Below, piece after piece: positions 68 to 39,318 of a stretch of 44,324 bases of DNA; within the stretch, counting starts at the first letter, position 1; every line of letters begins with the position of its first letter. The DNA comes from a phage. A program made the translations under genes and the position numbers. The stretch is taken from the NCBI GenBank assembly GCA_026204955.1, contig GCA_026204955.1_4545.1. One strand, written 5' to 3'. Under the pieces are notes generated by a model. It saw only the letters and a program-made list of their open reading frames with translations. It was not told where the DNA came from and did no database searches.

Positions 68-2710
68 ATGGCAGATCAAGCAGCAGGCATCACGCTAAAG
101 GTCGATGCCTCGCAAGTAAAGACAGCTAATACCGCGCTGGATTCGTTCGCGCAGAAGTCTGAGAACACAGAACGGAAAGTCAAGAAATTAAACGACACCC
201 TAGGCAACTCGAAAAAGGTTACGAGTGACGCCGCGGGCGGGATGGAAAAGATAGCGACTGAATCGCAGCGTGCCGCCGACGGCATGACGAAGCAGGAGCG
301 ACTCGCCAGCCGCTTGGGCATGTCAACCAAAAACCTGGGCTTTGCCTCCCGAAATGCCGCATTCCAGTTACAGGATATAGCGGTCACGCTTGAGATGGGT
401 ATGCCGGTGCACCGCGTTATGCTCCAGCAGTTGCCGCAGTTAACCGGGGCGTTTGGTGGCCTTGGTAACACGCTGCGTTATCTTGCTGGCCTCCTCGGCC
501 CTGTTGGGATCGGCCTTGCGGCACTATCGGCAACTTTAGGCGTCGGGGTGGCGGTTACGACCCGTGCAGAAAACCAGGTCGCAGCGCTGAATAAGACGCT
601 GACGCTATCCGGCAATATCTCCGGCCTCACCGCTAACCAGATCCTTATGCTGTCGGAGAACGCGGAGCGCATGGGTGGGTCATTCCGCAAGACGCGTGAC
701 ACCATTCAGTCTCTCGCGGCGGCGGGCGTGAAAGCGGGTGCGGACTTCGGCGCGCTGGCTAAGATCGTTAATGACTTTGCAAAGGTGTCTGGGCAGCCGA
801 TTGAAGATGTGGTTGAGGCGGTGGCGAAGTTGTCCAACGACCCGGTAGGCGGCTTGCGCGCACTGGCGGACAGATACCACGTCGTAACCGAGGCACAAAT
901 CCAGCAGGTGCAGTCTCTGGTGGATGCCGGTCGTGAGACTGAAGCGGTGGCGCTGGCTAACAAAACAGCCTCGGCGTCGTTCTCGGAAATGACCAAAGAA
1001 GTTAAGGCCAACATGGGCACGCTTGAGCGGTCTATGGCTGCGGTCACATCGGCAGCGAAATCTATGTGGGACGCCATTCTTGATATTGGTCGCGCGCAGT
1101 CCTCAAATGAATCTGAGATGAAAGCGCGTGAGTCCTTGCAGCGCCTGACCACGGCGTACTATGCCGAGATGAGAGCGGTCAATGCTTCAGGTGGGGTAAT
1201 GACCGAGGCACAGAAAGCACGTATTAACATGCTTTATAGCGAAATGGTCGCCCAGGAGAAAGTAGTCGCATCGCTCACCCTGCGCAACCGTGCGGAGCGT
1301 GAAAACGCCAACGCCGCGGAACAATCAGCGAAGGCGAACGAGGAGGCCAACCGCACCGCCCGCGACCGCGCCGCGTTCGAGAAGGAATACGCCACCAACG
1401 CTAAGAAGAGCGCCGATGAGATCGCCCGCCTCAATTTGCTGAATAAGCGCGGCGTGATTGACGAGAAGGAACTGGCTGAGGCGGTGAAGCAGGTCAACGA
1501 GCGTTACAAAGACCCCGCACCGAAGAAGGCCGCGGCTGTTCGCGTGGATGCCGGGCTGAAAATGCTGGAAGTCGCGCGAAGCGAATTAGCCCAGCTTCGT
1601 GAGTCTGGAAAGCAGATCGAAGCCAACGCATCGACGCAGACCCGCACGCAACGCGCGCAAGCGGCCCTTAACAAGCTGATTGCCGACAACGAGCAGTTAA
1701 TCGCTGCGAGCAAAGAAAGGGCACTGACGGCAGCAGAGAAGCAGCAATTAGTCGAGTTCGGGCGCGTGAAGGAAGTACGCGAGCAGATCGTCGAAGAAGC
1801 CAAATTGCTGGACGCAAAAGAGAAGCAGGTCAAGGCGCACGCGCAGATCGACGCCTTCGTTAAGAACCAGAACGCCGAGCTAAAAGCCACCGCGGCGGGC
1901 TATGCGCTTTCCACTCGCGAAGCGGCAAACCTGCGTGAAGAATTGCAGCTAATTGACCGCCTGAAGCGGGTCGGAGCTAACGATACTGATATTGATCTGG
2001 CGGTATCTAAGCTGCGCGAAGTGCAGGAAGCACAGACCGGTGCTAACGCCTCGCTATGGGATGGCTTCAGCCGCGGGCTTAAGGATAGCGTGGATGAAAT
2101 GGGTAACGGCTACACGCAGATGACGTCACTCACAAAATTCACGTTCGGCGCTATGCAGGACACGATGAACGAGTTTTTCGAGACTGGCAAGCTGAACGCA
2201 AAGGATATGGTTAAGTCCATCCTGAGCGAATTAATCAAGCTGGCTACCTCGCAGGCATTCAAGTCCATCGTTAGCGCTTTCGGAGGCGACGGCGGCAAAA
2301 ACGGATTGTTCGGCGCTATCTTCTCTGGCATAACTAAGAATGCGGACGGAGGAGCGTACGCAGGGGGCAATCTCGCGGCCTATTCGGGGCAAGTGGTAAG
2401 CAAGCCCACCTTTTTCAGTTACGGCGTCCAGGCGTTCGCAAAGGGCGCGGGATTGATGGGGGAGGCCGGACCCGAGGCCATCATGCCACTGAAGCGCGGC
2501 CCGGACGGCAAACTGGGCGTTGCCGCTGCCGGTGTAGGCGGAGGGATGATTGTAACGACCAACGTTAACATGGGGACCGGTAAGACGGATACCAGTGTTA
2601 GCGGTCCAGACCCGCGCACCGCGCAGGCGTTCGGAAAGCAAATCACCGAGTCGGTCAAGGCCGAGATCGTGAAGGCGACGAAACCGGGTGGTGTACTTTA
2701 CAAACGATGA
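68..2710 (+). CDS. tail tape measure protein
   Basis: 880-aa ORF, helix-prone Ala/Gln/Glu-rich with Gly-rich C-terminus; sits immediately upstream of lambda M/L/K/I/J-like tail genes; RBS AGGGGA upstream of ATG 68. Confidence 0.75.
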   Translation: MADQAAGITLKVDASQVKTANTALDSFAQKSENTERKVKKLNDTLGNSKKVTSDAAGGMEKIATESQRAADGMTKQERLASRLGMSTKNLGFASRNAAFQLQDIAVTLEMGMPVHRVMLQQLPQLTGAFGGLGNTLRYLAGLLGPVGIGLAALSATLGVGVAVTTRAENQVAALNKTLTLSGNISGLTANQILMLSENAERMGGSFRKTRDTIQSLAAAGVKAGADFGALAKIVNDFAKVSGQPIEDVVEAVAKLSNDPVGGLRALADRYHVVTEAQIQQVQSLVDAGRETEAVALANKTASASFSEMTKEVKANMGTLERSMAAVTSAAKSMWDAILDIGRAQSSNESEMKARESLQRLTTAYYAEMRAVNASGGVMTEAQKARINMLYSEMVAQEKVVASLTLRNRAERENANAAEQSAKANEEANRTARDRAAFEKEYATNAKKSADEIARLNLLNKRGVIDEKELAEAVKQVNERYKDPAPKKAAAVRVDAGLKMLEVARSELAQLRESGKQIEANASTQTRTQRAQAALNKLIADNEQLIAASKERALTAAEKQQLVEFGRVKEVREQIVEEAKLLDAKEKQVKAHAQIDAFVKNQNAELKATAAGYALSTREAANLREELQLIDRLKRVGANDTDIDLAVSKLREVQEAQTGANASLWDGFSRGLKDSVDEMGNGYTQMTSLTKFTFGAMQDTMNEFFETGKLNAKDMVKSILSELIKLATSQAFKSIVSAFGGDGGKNGLFGAIFSGITKNADGGAYAGGNLAAYSGQVVSKPTFFSYGVQAFAKGAGLMGEAGPEAIMPLKRGPDGKLGVAAAGVGGGMIVTTNVNMGTGKTDTSVSGPDPRTAQAFGKQITESVKAEIVKATKPGGVLYKR

Positions 2711-2718
2711 TAAAATGG

Positions 2719-2745
2719 CCCTCACTACAACGTGGGGGCTTTTTT
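2719..2745 (+). terminator. hairpin + T-tract between tape measure and next tail gene (possible partial terminator)
   Basis: CCCTCAC-tacaac-GTGGGGG (one G-U pair) followed by CTTTTTT; lies inside the alternative 2707 start region. Confidence 0.25.
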
Positions 2746-3345
2746 ATGGCGCAAGGTACAATCACACTAACTAAGGGAAGTAAGACCATCACAGGCGTGG
2801 GAACCGCGTTCCTGAGCGAGATCGGGAAGGTCCGCGTATTTACCCGCATCGACGGCAACGACTACACCGGAAAAATTGCGGCATTCAACTCTAACACCGT
2901 CATCACCCTGGCGGATAACTGGGCCGGACCGACAAAAGCCGGTGCAGCTTATGAGCTAATCGAAGCGCACGACCCGCGATCAAACGAATGGCCCTATTAC
3001 TGGCACATGCAATTGCAAGGCGGCGGAGACGTGCAGTTGGCTTTCCGGTCCGAGGAATTGCAGTTTGGTAACGGTTACGGTCAGAACATCGCGGACGGCC
3101 CGAACGCCGAAACGAAACAGTTCCCCGTGCAATTCGTCGGACTGACTACCGACAAGTGGTGTAACCCTAAGCTGGTTTACAACTTCCTTCGCGGGCACTT
3201 CGTCAAACCGTTTGTCGTCACCGCGCCGGATGGCGAAACAGGTTTATTCGTGGTCGAGCGTTCGAGCTTGTCGTACACTGACAACGGGCACTACACGGCA
3301 ACGGTATCCGCCACCCTTAAGACTGCTATTGGATTCGTAAGATGA
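2746..3345 (+). CDS. minor tail protein (lambda gpM position); N-terminus homologous to tail fibre N-terminus
   Basis: ORF in track from 2707 (ATGA overlap with tape measure stop); second in-frame ATG at 2746 begins MAQGTITLTKGSKTITGVGTAF, which parallels the tail fibre start MAAGTLSVTNNSKAVVGVGTTF. Start choice uncertain (2707 or 2746). Confidence 0.5.
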   Translation: MAQGTITLTKGSKTITGVGTAFLSEIGKVRVFTRIDGNDYTGKIAAFNSNTVITLADNWAGPTKAGAAYELIEAHDPRSNEWPYYWHMQLQGGGDVQLAFRSEELQFGNGYGQNIADGPNAETKQFPVQFVGLTTDKWCNPKLVYNFLRGHFVKPFVVTAPDGETGLFVVERSSLSYTDNGHYTATVSATLKTAIGFVR

Positions 3346-8928: not shown

Positions 8929-8954
8929 GAGGGGGCCGTTTGGCCCCCTTTTTT
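8929..8954. terminator. bidirectional rho-independent terminator (after J; after convergent 8953 gene)
   Basis: GAGGGGGCC-gttt-GGCCCCC followed by T6 on + strand, A-tract on the other side. Confidence 0.7.
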
Positions 8955-9918
8955 AATAGATGTTTGGGATAACAAGTAAGGGGGTTGGCACCGCGATATT
9001 TTTACCCGGCATCTGGAATTGCTGCCGTGAGTAGTTGCCGATGACGCGGTTTTTAGCGACGCGCACATTATTACCCGCCATGCGTATCCCGTTCATTCTA
9101 ACGTGGTTATAGCCTCCGTTGTTCTCAATGAGCGCGCCGGTGTATGAAAGCTGGATCAGACTATTACCAATATGCTGGTCGCCGCCTCCGATGTTAATAG
9201 TGCGGTCGTAGACAAACGGCTTGTTCACCGTCGAGAACGTGACCTGATTCTGGCTATTCGTCATGGTGATCCCGGCCCCAGGCGTTGGTGGTGTATTGTT
9301 GAATATTACCAAATCCATGTCCACAGAAGCCGCCACATCGTCGATGCCACCGTAGGACGCGTTGCGGACAATAATACTGCCGCCGTCGAAGCCTACTGAT
9401 ACGTTGCCATCGTCCCATCGGGCGAACGGGACACCGCTAACGGGCAATGCCATACTGCCGTTGACGCGCACGCGCTGTGCGTATCGGCAGGTCATTAGCT
9501 TAGACACGTTGGATATGGCGGTGAAGTCCGTCGAGTTCTCCACCAGTAAGCCCGCGTTGCGTGAACCAACCGGCAGCACTTCCATTATGACGCCAGCCCA
9601 TTGTGGTAAGCCAGAGTACGCGCCATACGCATCCTCCCCGCGCAGGGTGATACCACTATTCCCGTTGCGGGTAACAGACGTAACGTAAAACGGGTCGGGA
9701 ATTACCAGGGTCTGGTCGAATACCTCAATCACTTCTACCGGGCGAGTGAGCGCGACGACGACCTGCGACCCCTCCGTAAGCGGGGTGTTAATGGTTAGCG
9801 TCTTGTTGGACTGTGCCAGCTGGTTAAAGCTGGTGCAGTATGACGGCGCGCGGAGTCCAGCGGTTATCTCCATTACAGGCCTGCCGTCGTTATAGTCGAT
9901 AAGTATTCCAGCGCCCAT
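8953..9918 (-). CDS. hypothetical protein with beta-helix-like Asn/Gly-rich repeats
   Basis: Track ORF 8953-9927 (GTG); preferred ATG 9918 with GGGAG RBS, directly after the lipoprotein stop. Repeats such as NIGGGDQHIGNS and GGYNHVRMNGIRMAGNNVRVAKNRVIGN resemble parallel beta-helix turns. No signal peptide. Confidence 0.4.
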   Translation of the reverse strand: MGAGILIDYNDGRPVMEITAGLRAPSYCTSFNQLAQSNKTLTINTPLTEGSQVVVALTRPVEVIEVFDQTLVIPDPFYVTSVTRNGNSGITLRGEDAYGAYSGLPQWAGVIMEVLPVGSRNAGLLVENSTDFTAISNVSKLMTCRYAQRVRVNGSMALPVSGVPFARWDDGNVSVGFDGGSIIVRNASYGGIDDVAASVDMDLVIFNNTPPTPGAGITMTNSQNQVTFSTVNKPFVYDRTINIGGGDQHIGNSLIQLSYTGALIENNGGYNHVRMNGIRMAGNNVRVAKNRVIGNYSRQQFQMPGKNIAVPTPLLVIPNIY

Positions 9919-9920
9919 TA

Positions 9921-10142
9921 TTACCACTCCCGTGATTTAACTGATACTGTGCCTGAGAAGTTGCCGTCGCTATCGGATGTCAGCCCGGTGAATCGCATGT
10001 CCACATCTCCTGCCGGGACTTTTTGCCCGTCAACGTAGCGCAACATGCAGCTACCGTAAGCAACCGTAACGCAATCGCCGTTGTTGCGTTCTACGGCGCA
10101 ACCGGACAAAAGAACAGCACAAATCATAATTAAAGTTTTCAT
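9921..10142 (-). CDS. small lipoprotein (possible Cor-like superinfection exclusion protein)
   Basis: Internal start MKTLIMICAVLLSGC gives signal peptide plus lipobox (LSGC); AGGAG RBS 8 nt upstream of ATG 10142; 73 aa; transcribed opposite to the flanking tail genes. Confidence 0.5.
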   Translation of the reverse strand: MKTLIMICAVLLSGCAVERNNGDCVTVAYGSCMLRYVDGQKVPAGDVDMRFTGLTSDSDGNFSGTVSVKSREW

Positions 10143-10173
10143 GGTATCATCTCCTATATTTGGTCGAGTTTTA

Positions 10174-10201
10174 GTATTACACCGCTCGATCAAGAATGCA
10201 A
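10174..10201 (-). promoter_or_regulatory. sigma70-like promoter for antisense lipoprotein cassette
   Basis: Reverse strand -35 TTGCAT (10201-10196), 16-nt spacer, -10 TAATAC (10179-10174); extended -35 context AAATTGGTTGCAT shared with other sites. Confidence 0.4.
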
Positions 10202-10222
10202 CCAATTTACGAGGATTTAGCT

Positions 10223-13757: not shown

Positions 13758-13779
13758 TGCAACCAACCTATTGGTTGCA
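13758..13779. promoter_or_regulatory. perfect palindromic operator-like site TGCAACCAA-ccta-TTGGTTGCA
   Basis: 22-bp palindrome with 9-bp arms overlapping the stop codon of the HAD-like gene and upstream of the 13704 gene. Confidence 0.5.
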
Positions 13780-24923: not shown

Positions 24924-24953
24924 ATAATAGATTGGTTGCAGGATGGGTGTCAA
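24924..24953 (-). promoter_or_regulatory. leftward early promoter
   Basis: Reverse strand -35 TTGACA (24953-24948), 18-nt spacer, -10 TATTAT (24929-24924), upstream of acidic-repeat protein gene. Confidence 0.45.
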
Positions 24954-25130: not shown

Positions 25131-25460
25131 ATGAATGTAAACGACGCAATCGAAATGTTAACGAAGACTGTTTGCAGTGAGACAAGCCGGTCATGGGCTT
25201 ATACAGATGCCGTGGGGGCGGTGTTATTTGAAATCGAACGTCTGCGCAGTGTCGAAAAAGAATTGCGCGCGAAGCTGGAATTACTCAACGGTACGGCGGC
25301 CAGCAAGCTGCAAAAGCACAATGAAGAAATGGAAGAATACAAAAAACAGGTTATCCGTTTGCGCGCCGAGGGAAAATCGTGGGCGATGATTGCCGAGTTG
25401 ACCGGAATTAATCAGAGCACAGTGCGCTCCTGGGTACGCAATAATAAAACTTCTAAGTAA
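25131..25460 (+). CDS. HTH-domain DNA-binding protein (putative regulator)
   Basis: 109 aa; coiled-coil-like N-terminal region; C-terminal helix-turn-helix GKSWAMIAELTGINQSTVRSWVRN; first gene of rightward operon downstream of TTGACA-17-TAGTTT promoter. Confidence 0.5.
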   Translation: MNVNDAIEMLTKTVCSETSRSWAYTDAVGAVLFEIERLRSVEKELRAKLELLNGTAASKLQKHNEEMEEYKKQVIRLRAEGKSWAMIAELTGINQSTVRSWVRNNKTSK

Positions 25461-36417: not shown

Positions 36418-37504
36418 TCAATATATGGCGGATCGAATGATTCGCCGTCACATCTTCACCCAGCGCCTGAGCAACGACCAGGCGCGAAGGGTGCTGGCTA
36501 TGTGGGAGAAGTTCCGGCCCGCTTTACTGGGTAAGTTGACCGAGTTACTTGATGGTAAAAAGTCCATGAGCAACAAGGCACTTACCACACTTTTAACGCA
36601 ACTCGACAAGACCGTCAAAACGGAACTGCGCACCGAGTTTAAGGCGCTGGCTGAAAGCCTTCAGGAGTTCGCCGACACCGAGGCTGATTATCTTGCCGAT
36701 ACATTAACGGCAGCGATCCAGCCCGCGGTCGCCGTACCAGCGGTTGAGGTGGTTGGCGTTGTTACCGGCGCGCAGATTGCAGCGACGGCAATGAAAAACC
36801 CGTTCCAGGGTAATACTATGATGCAATGGCCTGATTCCCTTTCCGAGTGGACCAGGACGCAGATCGGCAATCAGGTGCGCGCCGGATTCATCCAGGGAAA
36901 GCCAACGATGGAAATTATCGCGGACGTGAGGCGCGCGCTAGGCGGTCGTAGTGCGCAAGCCATCTCAAGCGTTGTTAAGTCCGCAGTCAACCACTATGCG
37001 GCGACCGCCCGCGAACTAATGGTAAAAGCAAATGACGATATTCTCGAAGGTCGCCAATGGTTATCTACATTGGACACGCATACTTCTCCCATGTGCCAGC
37101 TACGCGATCGCCTGTTTTATCCGGTTGATGTTACTCCCGATACGAAAGGGAAGCGCGGCGGGAAAGTGGTGGCTGGATCACAATATGGCGCTGGTCCGGG
37201 CAAGCTACATTATTGCTGCCGTTCGACGGAGACGTGGAAAGTCAAAGGTATGGAAGATTGGCCCAGTGGTAAGCGTCCGGCACTGAAGGCTGACGCAGGC
37301 AGATTGCTGAGTGAGCAGGTAGACGCGCAGACTGATTTCTTCTCATGGGTGCAGCGCCAGCCGCGCCATATCCTGGAGGAGTTATATGGAGTGCAACGCG
37401 CCGACCAGATTATGCGCGGCGTGAAAGTGCCGAAGATGTTTACCGATTCTGGCGAACTGATGACTATTGCACAGCTTAAAAACCGGGGGTTATGGCGTGA
37501 TTAA
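36401..37504 (+). CDS. head morphogenesis / minor head protein (MuF/SPP1 gp7-like, putative)
   Basis: 367-aa ORF overlapping portal gene end; position after portal as in SPP1-like head modules; no strong motif seen. Confidence 0.4.
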   Translation: MAKTINQYMADRMIRRHIFTQRLSNDQARRVLAMWEKFRPALLGKLTELLDGKKSMSNKALTTLLTQLDKTVKTELRTEFKALAESLQEFADTEADYLADTLTAAIQPAVAVPAVEVVGVVTGAQIAATAMKNPFQGNTMMQWPDSLSEWTRTQIGNQVRAGFIQGKPTMEIIADVRRALGGRSAQAISSVVKSAVNHYAATARELMVKANDDILEGRQWLSTLDTHTSPMCQLRDRLFYPVDVTPDTKGKRGGKVVAGSQYGAGPGKLHYCCRSTETWKVKGMEDWPSGKRPALKADAGRLLSEQVDAQTDFFSWVQRQPRHILEELYGVQRADQIMRGVKVPKMFTDSGELMTIAQLKNRGLWRD

Positions 37505-37805
37505 ATATGCAGCGATCGGACTGGTTATCGGTCTGGTGGTAGGATTCTGGCAGGGTGATTCCTACCGCGCTGCCGTTGTGGCGAGAGCAGCGCAAGAAGC
37601 GCAAGCGAAAGCCCAACGGCAGCAAACTAAGGTTGTCGAGGGGGCAGTGCAGGCAGAACAGGCCCGCGATGTGGAATACCGGACTATCACGAAAGAGGTT
37701 GTGAAATATGTTACGCGTCCTAACCGTCCTGATTGCAGTTTTGATGCTGAGCGCGTGCGGATCAAGCAAAGCGCCATTGATGCCGCTAACCGAGTCGGTC
37801 TATAG
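37497..37805 (+). CDS. i-spanin (Rz-like)
   Basis: Track ORF from TTG 37467; preferred GTG 37497 overlapping upstream stop; N-terminal TM anchor KYAAIGLVIGLVVGFW then Ala/Gln/Glu-rich coiled coil; o-spanin gene embedded in the +1 frame. Confidence 0.5.
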   Translation: MIKYAAIGLVIGLVVGFWQGDSYRAAVVARAAQEAQAKAQRQQTKVVEGAVQAEQARDVEYRTITKEVVKYVTRPNRPDCSFDAERVRIKQSAIDAANRVGL

Positions 37806-37938
37806 ACCGCCTTGCACCTTTGAGAATGCCTCGGCAGATCCAGACGAAGACTTGCTGGTCGATGTTAAGAATATGGAATGTGGGGCTAAGCTGAGGGCGC
37901 AAGTGCTGGATTTGCAGAGAATAATTCGGGGGCCGTGA
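37708..37938 (+). CDS. o-spanin (Rz1-like lipoprotein), overlapping the i-spanin gene
   Basis: 76 aa; signal peptide with lipobox LSAC, Pro-rich mature region; GAGG RBS; starts inside Rz-like ORF in another frame and extends beyond it. Confidence 0.55.
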   Translation: MLRVLTVLIAVLMLSACGSSKAPLMPLTESVYRPPCTFENASADPDEDLLVDVKNMECGAKLRAQVLDLQRIIRGP

Positions 37939-37951
37939 TGGCCCCCTTTTT
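37928..37951. terminator. bidirectional terminator after Rz1 / after convergent clamp-like gene
   Basis: GGGGGCC-gtgat-GGCCCCC followed by T5; stem overlaps Rz1 stop codon. Confidence 0.65.
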
Positions 37952-37956
37952 GTTAG

Positions 37957-38469
37957 CTACAAACGCATCGGCTTGATAACAAGGAAGGCACCGCCTTTGA
38001 AAAGCACACGTGTCGCCTTGTCTACTCCCTGAAATTCCAGTTTTAAGCTATCAAACTTACGGTCGAACAATTTAGCAATTTTGCAGGCGTCGGACAGGTA
38101 TTCCCCGGCAAACCCTATAGCCTCCACTTTAGCGCTGTCGAAAGACGTAACTCTACGCCAGTCTGGGAATCGGCCGTCTACGATCTCTACGGGTATGGTA
38201 CCGATTAATACGTCTTTACTATCAAAGAACGCAGCGGATGTGCCGTCTATGTTGCAGTATTCGAATTTAGTAGGTAAGCGGCCTTTAATTGCTACTATTT
38301 TACTTTCACCTTCGGGAACAACCGCGGACCCGCAGAACAAACGATGACCGTCGGTGGCCACGATGAATCCTTTCTCGTCGAAAAACACACCATTCAGATA
38401 GTACCGCACGTCATTAGTTGCGGCGCACATCATAGCGGCTTTAAGATCGGCATAGTTAACTTTAATCAT
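37957..38469 (-). CDS. truncated DNA polymerase III beta sliding-clamp (DnaN) homologue
   Basis: Preferred ATG 38469 (GAGGA RBS) within track ORF 37957-38601. Segments [41 protein letters not shown] and C-terminal LVIKPMRL recalled to match E. coli DnaN [42 protein letters not shown] and C-terminal VVMPMRL; only about 169 aa versus about 366 aa. Confidence 0.6.
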   Translation of the reverse strand: [170 protein letters not shown]

Positions 38470-38490
38470 TGTCATTTCCTCATGTTGGTA

Positions 38491-38514
38491 TGCAACCAAT
38501 ATATTGCAACCAAT
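38491..38514. repeat. tandem TGCAACCAAT x2 in divergent region between clamp-like and scaffold genes
   Basis: TGCAACCAAT at 38491-38500 and 38505-38514, adjacent to the RBS of the clamp-like gene. Confidence 0.45.
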
Positions 38515-38533
38515 CCACCAATGCAAGCAAATT

Positions 38534-38561
38534 TTGCGATTATTTTTATCGCTGATAATAT
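38534..38561 (+). promoter_or_regulatory. promoter for scaffold/capsid genes
   Basis: -35 TTGCGA (38534-38539), 16-nt spacer, -10 TAATAT (38556-38561). Confidence 0.35.
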
Positions 38562-38616
38562 TAGAAGCGTGAAGTCGAGCGGGTGGCCTGCTCTGCCACA
38601 ATCCCAGGGGGATAGC

Positions 38617-39318
38617 ATGAAACTTACTAAAGCAGAATATGACGCGTTGCCGGAAGGTATGAAGGCGCTTTTTGTTGCCGATGGCGACGGGTATAAATCA
38701 ACGTTCATGACCGCAGAAGAAGTACAGGCGGAAATCAAGGGTCTGAAAGACAACAACGCGAAGCTGGTGAGCGAGAAGAAAGCAGAAGCCGAACGCCGCG
38801 CCGAAGCTGAGCGCCTTGCTAAAGAGAAAGAGGAAGCCGCTGCGCGCAAAAATGGCGACCTCGAAGCGATCGACAAGTCCTGGAAAGATAAGTTTGCGAA
38901 ACACGAAGCAGACACATCGGGAAAAATCGAAGCCTACCGCAAGCAGATCCACGATCTAACCATCGGCAGCGCTGCCAAAGACCTGGCGTCGAAGCTGTTC
39001 GGTAAGAATGCGGGCATCATGCAACGCCACGTAATGGACCGCCTGACGCTGGAAGACGGCGAAGACGGCAGCTTGAAAGTGCGAGTCTTGCAGGATGGCA
39101 AACCGTCCGCGCTGACTATGGAAGAGCTGGAAAAAGAGTTCCGTAATAACGCCGATTTTGCATCCGTCCTGGCTGGCACGCCAGCCGGTGGCGCGCCTAG
39201 CAAACCGACGCAGGTTGTCGAAGATGTGAAGTCAAAAATCACTATGGGCCACAGCTTCGGTATCACTGACCTTACGAAACAGGCAGGTGAAATCATCGCT
39301 AAGATGGGCGACGACTAG
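38617..39318 (+). CDS. scaffolding protein (putative)
   Basis: Preferred ATG 38617 within track ORF 38344-39318; 233 aa, highly charged Ala/Glu/Lys-rich coiled-coil (EKKAEAERRAEAERLAKEKEEAAARK); immediately upstream of capsid gene. Confidence 0.5.
   Translation: MKLTKAEYDALPEGMKALFVADGDGYKSTFMTAEEVQAEIKGLKDNNAKLVSEKKAEAERRAEAERLAKEKEEAAARKNGDLEAIDKSWKDKFAKHEADTSGKIEAYRKQIHDLTIGSAAKDLASKLFGKNAGIMQRHVMDRLTLEDGEDGSLKVRVLQDGKPSALTMEELEKEFRNNADFASVLAGTPAGGAPSKPTQVVEDVKSKITMGHSFGITDLTKQAGEIIAKMGDD

Follow-up and report, generated by a model that had tools for sequence, protein, structure and literature searches.

The locus

The window, i.e. the whole stretch of DNA analysed (44,324 nucleotides), is a circularly permuted whole genome of the Dhillonvirus type, a coliphage group. 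Tail genes are followed in it by a leftward replication block and then by lysis, terminase and head genes. The leftward block encodes a family-A DNA polymerase (PolA), two helicases, an SSB-like protein and a PD-(D/E)XK nuclease; PolA is present in this phage and a clamp loader is absent. Between the spanin genes and the head scaffolding gene, a gene on the minus strand encodes a short homologue of the bacterial beta sliding clamp (DnaN), which is called the mini-clamp below. The gene and its surroundings comprise the following features.

37957–38469, minus strand: coding sequence, with its stop codon, of the 170-aa mini beta-clamp, which corresponds to DnaN domain II and the second half of DnaN domain III
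38477–38481, minus strand: Shine-Dalgarno sequence GAGGA, 7 nt upstream of the ATG at 38469 (read from the sequence)
37467–37938, plus strand: i-spanin and o-spanin genes (Rz/Rz1-like), from ORFs and the annotation of SO-1, TheodorHerzl and EP23; left border of the cargo site
37928–37946, both strands: G+C-rich hairpin between the converging o-spanin and mini-clamp genes (terminator scan)
38498–38526, minus strand: putative sigma-70-type cargo promoter (-35 TTGCAT at 38526–38521, 17-nt spacer, -10 TATATT at 38503–38498; inferred)
38491–38500 and 38505–38514, plus strand: two tandem copies of TGCAACCAAT, which overlap the spacer and -10 element of the promoter and the start of the transcript
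38620–39318, plus strand: head scaffolding gene, from the ORF and the annotation of TheodorHerzl, EP23 and Gluttony; divergent from the mini-clamp gene, right border of the cargo site

The ORF of about 169 aa reported by the initial annotation, which was made from the sequence alone, is real: its likely start is the ATG at 38469, behind the GAGGA sequence, and it runs on the minus strand to 37957 with 170 codons for amino acids. Some GenBank records begin the gene at another in-frame ATG, at 38475, which is separated from the Shine-Dalgarno sequence by only 1 nt. GAGGA is invariant in five Dhillonvirus upstream regions, including one with an Nmad5 gene downstream, and the arrangement GAGGA-N7-ATG also precedes a different gene in phage Gluttony.

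The mini-clamp region is 92–96% identical to those of the Dhillonviruses Sodalis phage SO-1, Escherichia phages AV129, TheodorHerzl and rolling, and Shigella phage EP23. In the SO-1 record of 2009 the gene is gp7, noted as a putative pol III beta and a possible moron. The gene is under purifying selection, with dN/dS of 0.18–0.39 among four Dhillonvirus alleles.

It had also been stated that no other late gene lies on the minus strand. This was not borne out, because a second minus-strand islet, at 8953–10205, is situated inside the tail block. The islet encodes a 324-aa membrane protein (PHROG 1265, category 'moron') and, as its second gene, a 94-aa protein weakly similar to the Cor lipoproteins of superinfection exclusion.

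The cargo slot and its control region

The mini-clamp gene is present in about 16 of the 159 Dhillonvirus records that match the region. Most other Dhillonviruses, e.g. Gluttony, carry in the same place and orientation a 254-aa Nmad5 gene (PF18757, E 4e-54), and EP23 with several relatives has both cargoes, the mini-clamp first and then Nmad5. The slot (37957–38620 in the window; 2454–3218 and 1453–2811 in the related loci L002 and L008) was thus observed in three states, namely mini-clamp, Nmad5, and mini-clamp with Nmad5. All three stand behind the same promoter and 5'UTR, and the 150 bp upstream of the slot, with a promoter-like block and two copies of ATTGGTTGCA, are conserved whatever the cargo. 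The mini-clamp is therefore optional cargo behind its own conserved promoter-like region. The 5'UTR element CCAACAACGAGGA precedes both EP23 genes, which suggests cassette exchange by recombination at this element. Nmad5 was considered as an obligate partner of the mini-clamp and rejected, since none was found anywhere in the window.

A 2025 study showed that Nmad5 at the Dhillonvirus slot is dispensable and toxic to clone, and that a single Nmad5 substitution allows a Dhillonvirus to escape the Tmn defence (PMC11846954). The slot thus serves as an arena for accessory functions.

The putative cargo promoter was missed by a consensus promoter scan because its -35 element matches only 3 of 6 positions. 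In relatives the -35 element is TTGCAA, and the spacer is 17–18 nt across the set. The divergent region 38470–38620 also contains a weak plus-strand promoter candidate, TTGCGA-16/17-TAATAT, and, within the conserved 150 bp, the palindrome GCGATAAAAATAATCGC at 38536–38552. The start codon of the scaffolding gene is visible in the alignment of Dhillonvirus upstream regions.

On the left side of the slot, the proposal of a bidirectional terminator stands in part. The hairpin at 37928–37946 scores on both strands, but a good T-run follows it on the plus strand only, so that it is a good intrinsic terminator there (followed by TTTTTGTT) and a weaker one on the minus strand. Because a strong plus-strand terminator follows the spanin genes, the scaffold and capsid genes probably need read-through or a promoter of their own.

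A recurrent 10-mer

The tandem motifs noted earlier at the flank of the gene are the two copies of TGCAACCAAT listed above, and a partial inverted copy follows at 38517–38525. The motif is distributed over the whole genome. Nine exact copies were counted in the window against 0.13 expected, and 18 copies with up to one mismatch against 3.5 expected; phage TheodorHerzl has 10 exact copies (0.11 expected), and the equivalent sites are conserved.

TGCAACCAAT sites in the window: 10197, 13758/13770, 15426/15443, 18388/18400, 24931, 27747/27782, 28063, 28154/28185, 28739, 31601, 38491/38505

Nearly all copies are intergenic, often in direct or inverted pairs, and they precede both replication-block genes and late genes. 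At 13758–13779 two copies form the near-palindromic pair TGCAACCAAC-CT-ATTGGTTGCA with one mismatch. The copy at 24931 lies inside the spacer of a TTGACA-18-TATTAT promoter, and the copy at 10197 lies in the divergent region of the 8953–10205 islet. The 5' element TATATTGGTTGCA(C/T)ACCAACATGAGGA of the mini-clamp gene is found upstream of gene 28216 as well.

Probably TGCAACCAAT serves as the operator of a regulator encoded by the phage or as an element of phage promoters. A gene at 25131–25460 on the plus strand, situated at a divergent control region as the first gene of a rightward block, encodes a 109-aa HTH-like protein (PHROG 9366; weak HTH/repressor matches), and this protein is a candidate factor recognising TGCAACCAAT.

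Homology to DnaN and predicted fold

The near-matches to E. coli DnaN named in the initial annotation were located exactly. One segment (DVRYYLNG...VATDGHRL) aligns with DnaN 150–177 (149–178 for the segment as quoted), another of 11 residues with DnaN 237–247, and the C-terminal PMRL with DnaN 363–366. Search with phmmer against the PDB sequences gave about 34 distinct beta-clamp matches (best E about 1e-8), and a profile built from 62 family sequences matched E. coli DnaN 143–254 with an hhalign probability of 99.4% and E of 5e-22. Over the mapped conserved blocks, 41 of 81 residues are identical to host beta.

The curated clamp models scored below their cutoffs. Pfam returned a partial match to PF02767, the central clamp domain, of 23.9 bits, under the gathering score of 27, and neither the N-terminal nor the C-terminal clamp domain model (PF00712, PF02768) matched the protein. 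The NCBIfam DnaN model TIGR00663 scored 26.7 bits against a cutoff of 137.65.

An AlphaFold2 model calculated on the family alignment is compact and confident (pLDDT 93.9, pTM 0.89). When this model was compared with the PDB by Foldseek, the 50 best matches were all beta clamps; the clamp fold was thus recovered for the domains that are present. Both the profile search and the structure prediction, which the initial annotation had named as ways to check its proposal of a truncated clamp homologue, came out positive. As judged from the phmmer and profile comparisons, the similarity of the mini-clamp to DnaN is far beyond chance.

One and a half domains

The initial annotation had assigned the protein to domain II and part of domain III, and it is now possible to define this part. 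The profile of the C-terminal third of the mini-clamp scored 21.5 bits on DnaN 314–365 and -0.9 bits on DnaN 254–312, and by this test the protein consists of domain II and the second half of domain III, i.e. DnaN 314–366. Its domain II aligns residue for residue with DnaN 143–254, and its last 52 residues align with DnaN 314–365. An alternative placement of the third motif in the first half of domain III, suggested by a single-sequence HMMER alignment, was rejected on the profile scores (21.5 bits for DnaN 310–366 against -0.9 bits for 254–312). Comparison with a three-domain DnaN of about 366 aa also failed, since the mini-clamp has 170 aa and covers only 143–254 and 314–365.

Domain I and DnaN 255–313 are missing from the mini-clamp and from all 62 aligned relatives. 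Residues I272 and L273 of DnaN, whose mutation makes beta monomeric, fall within the deleted segment, as does the loop contacted by delta. These two positions were mutated in the beta variant crystallised with delta (PMC11139829). The head-to-tail dimer interface, formed by domain I against domain III with the I272/L273 region, was not found in the mini-clamp, and the earlier statement that a full ring cannot form from this fragment alone agrees with the absence of domain I and DnaN 255–313. Of domain III the mini-clamp thus retains the second half, so that the whole cleft is kept and the dimer interface is lost.

The model contains three units of the beta-alpha-beta-beta-beta type (residues 2–48, 57–97 and 122–165). 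The unit 57–97 is modelled without a counterpart of the second inner helix that DnaN has in domain II.

An insertion at the junction that would restore the missing half-domain was found in 0 of the 62 aligned family members. The additional length of longer members consists of C-terminal tails and loops, and the idea that they are full two-domain forms was rejected for this reason. The alignment thus indicates that the plan of one and a half domains is a trait of the mini-clamp family.

Summarizing the alignments and the model, it may be concluded that the mini-clamp is a fragment of a beta sliding clamp which should be incompetent to form a ring and keeps only the partner-binding cleft.

The partner-binding cleft

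The clamp cleft comprises 18 residues in two subsites (PMC11139829). Subsite I includes R152, L155, T172, G174, H175, R176, L177, P242, R246, V247, V360 and M362, and subsite II includes H175, N320, Y323, V344, M362, P363, M364 and R365 (PMC11139829). All 18 residues belong to the DnaN segments retained by the mini-clamp, and 17 of them could be mapped. In the window protein, 15 of these 17 are identical to those of E. coli, in line with the earlier suggestion that the surface used by clamp partners is kept. The identity to the E. coli residue among the 62 family members is as follows.

L155, G174, P242: 62/62 each
R152, T172: 61/62 each
R365: 60/62
R176, R246: 59/62 each
H175, M362: 58/62 each
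Y323, P363: 57/62 each

At least 80% conservation in the family was found for 12 of the 17 mapped cleft residues, and at least 92% for 11. Only 28 of the 170 columns are conserved to this lower level, the 12 cleft residues among them (hypergeometric p 1.4e-7); the remaining ones are mostly direct neighbours of cleft residues. The mean column identity of the family is 28%, yet the cleft residues are almost fixed. In part, this signal is also the one by which the homology is recognised, because the same residues are the best conserved ones in all beta clamps. Such a pattern of conservation suggests that the cleft of the mini-clamp probably binds partners.

The two exceptions in the window protein are A121 at the position of N320 and K166 at the position of M362. 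The latter results from one nucleotide change.

37972–37974, minus strand: codon of K166, a single ATG to AAG change (M166K)

K166 is unique to the window isolate; Met stands here in all 10 close relatives examined and in 58 of the 62 family members. The position of Met362 bridges both cleft subsites. K166 may come from an error of sequencing; otherwise it could mark a functional variant or a loss of function, and because of M166K and of Ala at the Asn320 position, the isolate's own cleft may be altered.

Distribution, labels and genomic contexts

The mini-clamp matches PHROG 3007 with E of 5.2e-55, its residues 1–170 covering profile positions 2–186 of 190, and the only difference between the window protein and the PHROG members is the allele-specific M166K. 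Its identity is 91–98% to the Dhillonvirus copies and 30–45% to those of Kagunavirus, Segzyvirus and other genera. The architecture of one and a half domains was found in 252 phage records and, at 50% identity, in at least 150 clusters. Among the best 150 of 2,399 matches in 1.84 billion representatives, the proteins have 80–271 aa, with one of 502 aa, and none has the length of DnaN. The BFVD contains many phage proteins of 163–250 aa with the same fold, from Serratia, Pantoea, Burkholderia, Rhodococcus, Gordonia and Xanthomonas phages.

The 502-aa fusion (P0231) was considered as a Rosetta-stone clue and set aside, since its extension has no Pfam match and is by eye disordered and of low complexity. 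In more distant mini-clamps (P0032–P0110 of alignment A1) the chain continues for 10–40 residues beyond MPxR, and this tail often contains a conserved Trp (AW, PAW or DW). Such a tail is absent from the window protein.

Several family genes are labelled 'DNA polymerase III beta subunit' in GenBank (SO-1 gp7, EP23 p08, TheodorHerzl gp07, Sciku gp004). PHROG 3007 itself bears the label 'RusA-like Holliday junction resolvase', which was copied into RefSeq NC_013600, NC_016566, NC_054640 and NC_048112. This label is unsupported and was rejected, because no RusA was found by Pfam (E up to 1) and the structural matches are all sliding clamps.

The clamp similarity of the gene was already in databases, and short phage polIII-beta homologues were noted in 2011. 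New here are the definition of the architecture as one and a half domains, the recognition that the conserved cleft is built by the pieces retained, and the genomic contexts at the cargo site and in prophages. No tested function of the mini-clamp family was found in the literature searched.

In other phages the homologue occurs in several settings. In the Kagunavirus Sciku it is a lone opposite-strand gene inside the head module, and in Segzyvirus it belongs to a small opposite-strand operon with a ParB-like gene. In metagenomic phages it is located within long arrays of small genes resembling early regions. Skarpretter has it among DNA-metabolism genes (Dam/Dcm methylases, dUTPase and primase-helicase). 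In Salmonella prophages (L009, L010 and L011; 48% identity) it is the first gene after a CI-like S24 repressor and heads an operon with genes for an HNH protein, a DUF2800/PD-(D/E)XK nuclease, an Enc34-type SSB, Nmad5 or SIR2, and PolA, the slot adjoining PolA being occupied by either the Nmad5 or the SIR2-domain gene. A replication module of DUF2800 nuclease, Enc34-type SSB, PolA and Prim-Pol/DUF5906 is common to these prophages and the virulent Dhillonviruses. The contexts in relatives suggest a tie of the mini-clamp to early expression and to replication modules with family-A polymerases.

Possible functions

The initial annotation had put forward three possible roles, a clamp mimic, a poison of host beta and an adaptor for the phage polymerase. 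Judging by the cleft, the mini-clamp probably docks clamp partner proteins rather than encircles DNA. In our opinion, the best explanation, although a tentative one to which we would give somewhat less than an even chance, is that it acts as a decoy competing with the host beta ring for host clients. The protein would be a soluble monomer or small oligomer, and its cleft would bind the QL[SD]LF-type clamp-binding motifs of these clients. The candidates are Pol III alpha, epsilon and delta; Hda; Pol I, II and IV; ligase; and MutS/L. Binding of clients would lead to competition with the host ring, and the net effect may be that host replication and repair are damped, or that host polymerases are kept off phage DNA and primers. 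Meanwhile, the phage itself would replicate with its own family-A polymerase, helicases and SSB; since it encodes PolA, two helicases and an SSB-like protein, it does not need the host replicase. Two observations weigh against the decoy: the window isolate alone has Lys at Met362 and Ala at Asn320, and TGCAACCAAT stands upstream of late genes as well.

Another possibility, which we consider less probable and somewhat doubtful, is suggested by analogy with herpesvirus UL42/UL44: the mini-clamp would be a non-ring tether or adaptor, with a basic face on DNA and the cleft holding the polymerase or Pol I/ligase, and would give a positive and dispensable boost to the replisome of the phage family-A polymerase. 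The presence of PolA and absence of a clamp loader agree with this, and so do the DNA-metabolism neighbours in Skarpretter. The position of the gene at the head of the DUF2800 nuclease/Enc34-type SSB/Nmad5/PolA operon of temperate Salmonella relatives fits a positive role in replication equally well as the decoy. On the would-be DNA-facing helix 122–135 the lysines are fairly conserved (Lys/Arg in the family at K130 77% and at K133 66%), which favours a tether and speaks against a decoy. Loader-less viral clamp homologues of high pI were proposed to bind DNA directly (Kazlauskas and Venclovas 2011, PMC3201878), and the window mini-clamp has a pI of 8.3 against 5.25 for E. coli beta; however, the family is not consistently basic (median pI 6.9, range 5.0–9.5), and one inner helix is absent in the model. 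Moreover, about nine in ten Dhillonvirus records have the same polymerase without the mini-clamp. A strict pattern of the clamp-binding motif gave no canonical match in any of the phage proteins, only two poor hexameric ones in tail-region proteins, and a relaxed pattern gave none at the termini of PolA, so that a phage-encoded client for the tether was not apparent.

The other explanations seem to us far less probable. That the gene acts on a host immune system, as a decoy or a trigger, is unlikely, even though its slot is a cargo hot spot where Nmad5 is non-essential, toxic to clone and linked to Tmn (PMC11846954), and a SIR2 gene can fill the Nmad5 slot in the Salmonella prophage operon. 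No PADLOC defence model matched the mini-clamp at E up to 1, and conservation points to a generic clamp cleft. We know of no defence system that uses clamp-binding motifs, and this too weighs against such a role. It is also improbable that the fragment poisons the clamp by joining host beta monomers or capping an open clamp, so that rings could not close or load. The fold is shared with host beta, with the 41 identical residues of 81 in the mapped conserved blocks, and attack on the clamp is known from phages, e.g. Twort Gp168 (PMC8565349). Both halves of the native interface (domain I, and DnaN 255–313 with I272/L273) are missing, however, and poisoning through this interface is unlikely for that reason; a heteromer would need a non-native contact. 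Finally, the protein is shorter than DnaN and optional in the genus, as might be expected of an inert remnant of a captured host dnaN. This explanation we regard as very improbable, because the same architecture is kept throughout the phage records and clusters counted above, dN/dS is 0.18–0.39, the gene has its own Shine-Dalgarno sequence and a conserved promoter-like region, and the model is confident and compact.

Significance and comparison with known systems

The cleft of the beta clamp is the docking hub of bacterial replication and repair and a target for antibiotics. It is possible, although rather doubtful at present, that cleft-only fragments are a widespread class of phage effectors that titrate or redirect every host protein with a clamp motif. 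If this is true, the replicase, the clamp loader, translesion polymerases, mismatch repair and Hda would all be affected, and a single protein would uncouple the DNA transactions of the host from the clamp, while a phage replisome that does not depend on the clamp continues. Such fragments occur in more than 250 phage genomes, whose range extends from enterobacterial siphoviruses to Burkholderia phages and actinophages. A natural, stable cleft-only protein of 19 kDa would show how phages interfere with the clamp hub or borrow it, and would provide work on inhibitors and peptides with a ready minimal scaffold of the cleft. The E. coli K-12 phages TheodorHerzl (BASEL collection) and EP23 carry the gene, which makes the idea directly testable. 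In addition, the analysis corrects the propagated 'RusA-like resolvase' label and refines 'second and third domains' to one and a half.

In its fold the mini-clamp is the same as E. coli DnaN (PDB 2POL/1MMI). DnaN has 366 aa and three domains, whereas the 170 aa of the mini-clamp include neither domain I nor the first half of domain III, and both the dimer interface and one inner helix are lost. The mini-clamp cannot be an equivalent of DnaN, because its TIGR00663 score is 26.7 bits against the cutoff of 137.65 and the parts needed for a ring are missing.

E. coli beta* is a short UV-inducible product of dnaN, which has the whole of domain III and reportedly oligomerises into a ring (Skaliter/Paz-Elizur 1996). 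Both beta* and the mini-clamp start near the start of domain II and are without domain I, but beta* keeps domain III whole, whereas the mini-clamp is without half of it. Herpesvirus UL42/UL44 are processivity factors with a clamp fold that are not rings. They consist of two full domains, and their binding to DNA and to the C-terminus of the polymerase is proven; the mini-clamp has one and a half domains.

In 2011 Kazlauskas and Venclovas described homologues of polIII-beta from phages that encode no clamp loader, and these proteins are shorter than DnaN (PMC3201878). Retention of the cleft is not discussed in that paper, and the homologues are presented there as consisting of the second and third domains, whereas the mini-clamp has only half of the third. 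Twort Gp168 is described (PMC8565349) as a beta-clamp inhibitor that occupies the DNA channel of the clamp. Gp168 and the mini-clamp would both be phage proteins aimed at the host clamp system, but they differ in the way of action: Gp168 blocks the channel of the clamp, while the mini-clamp is itself a clamp fragment that would compete for its clients.
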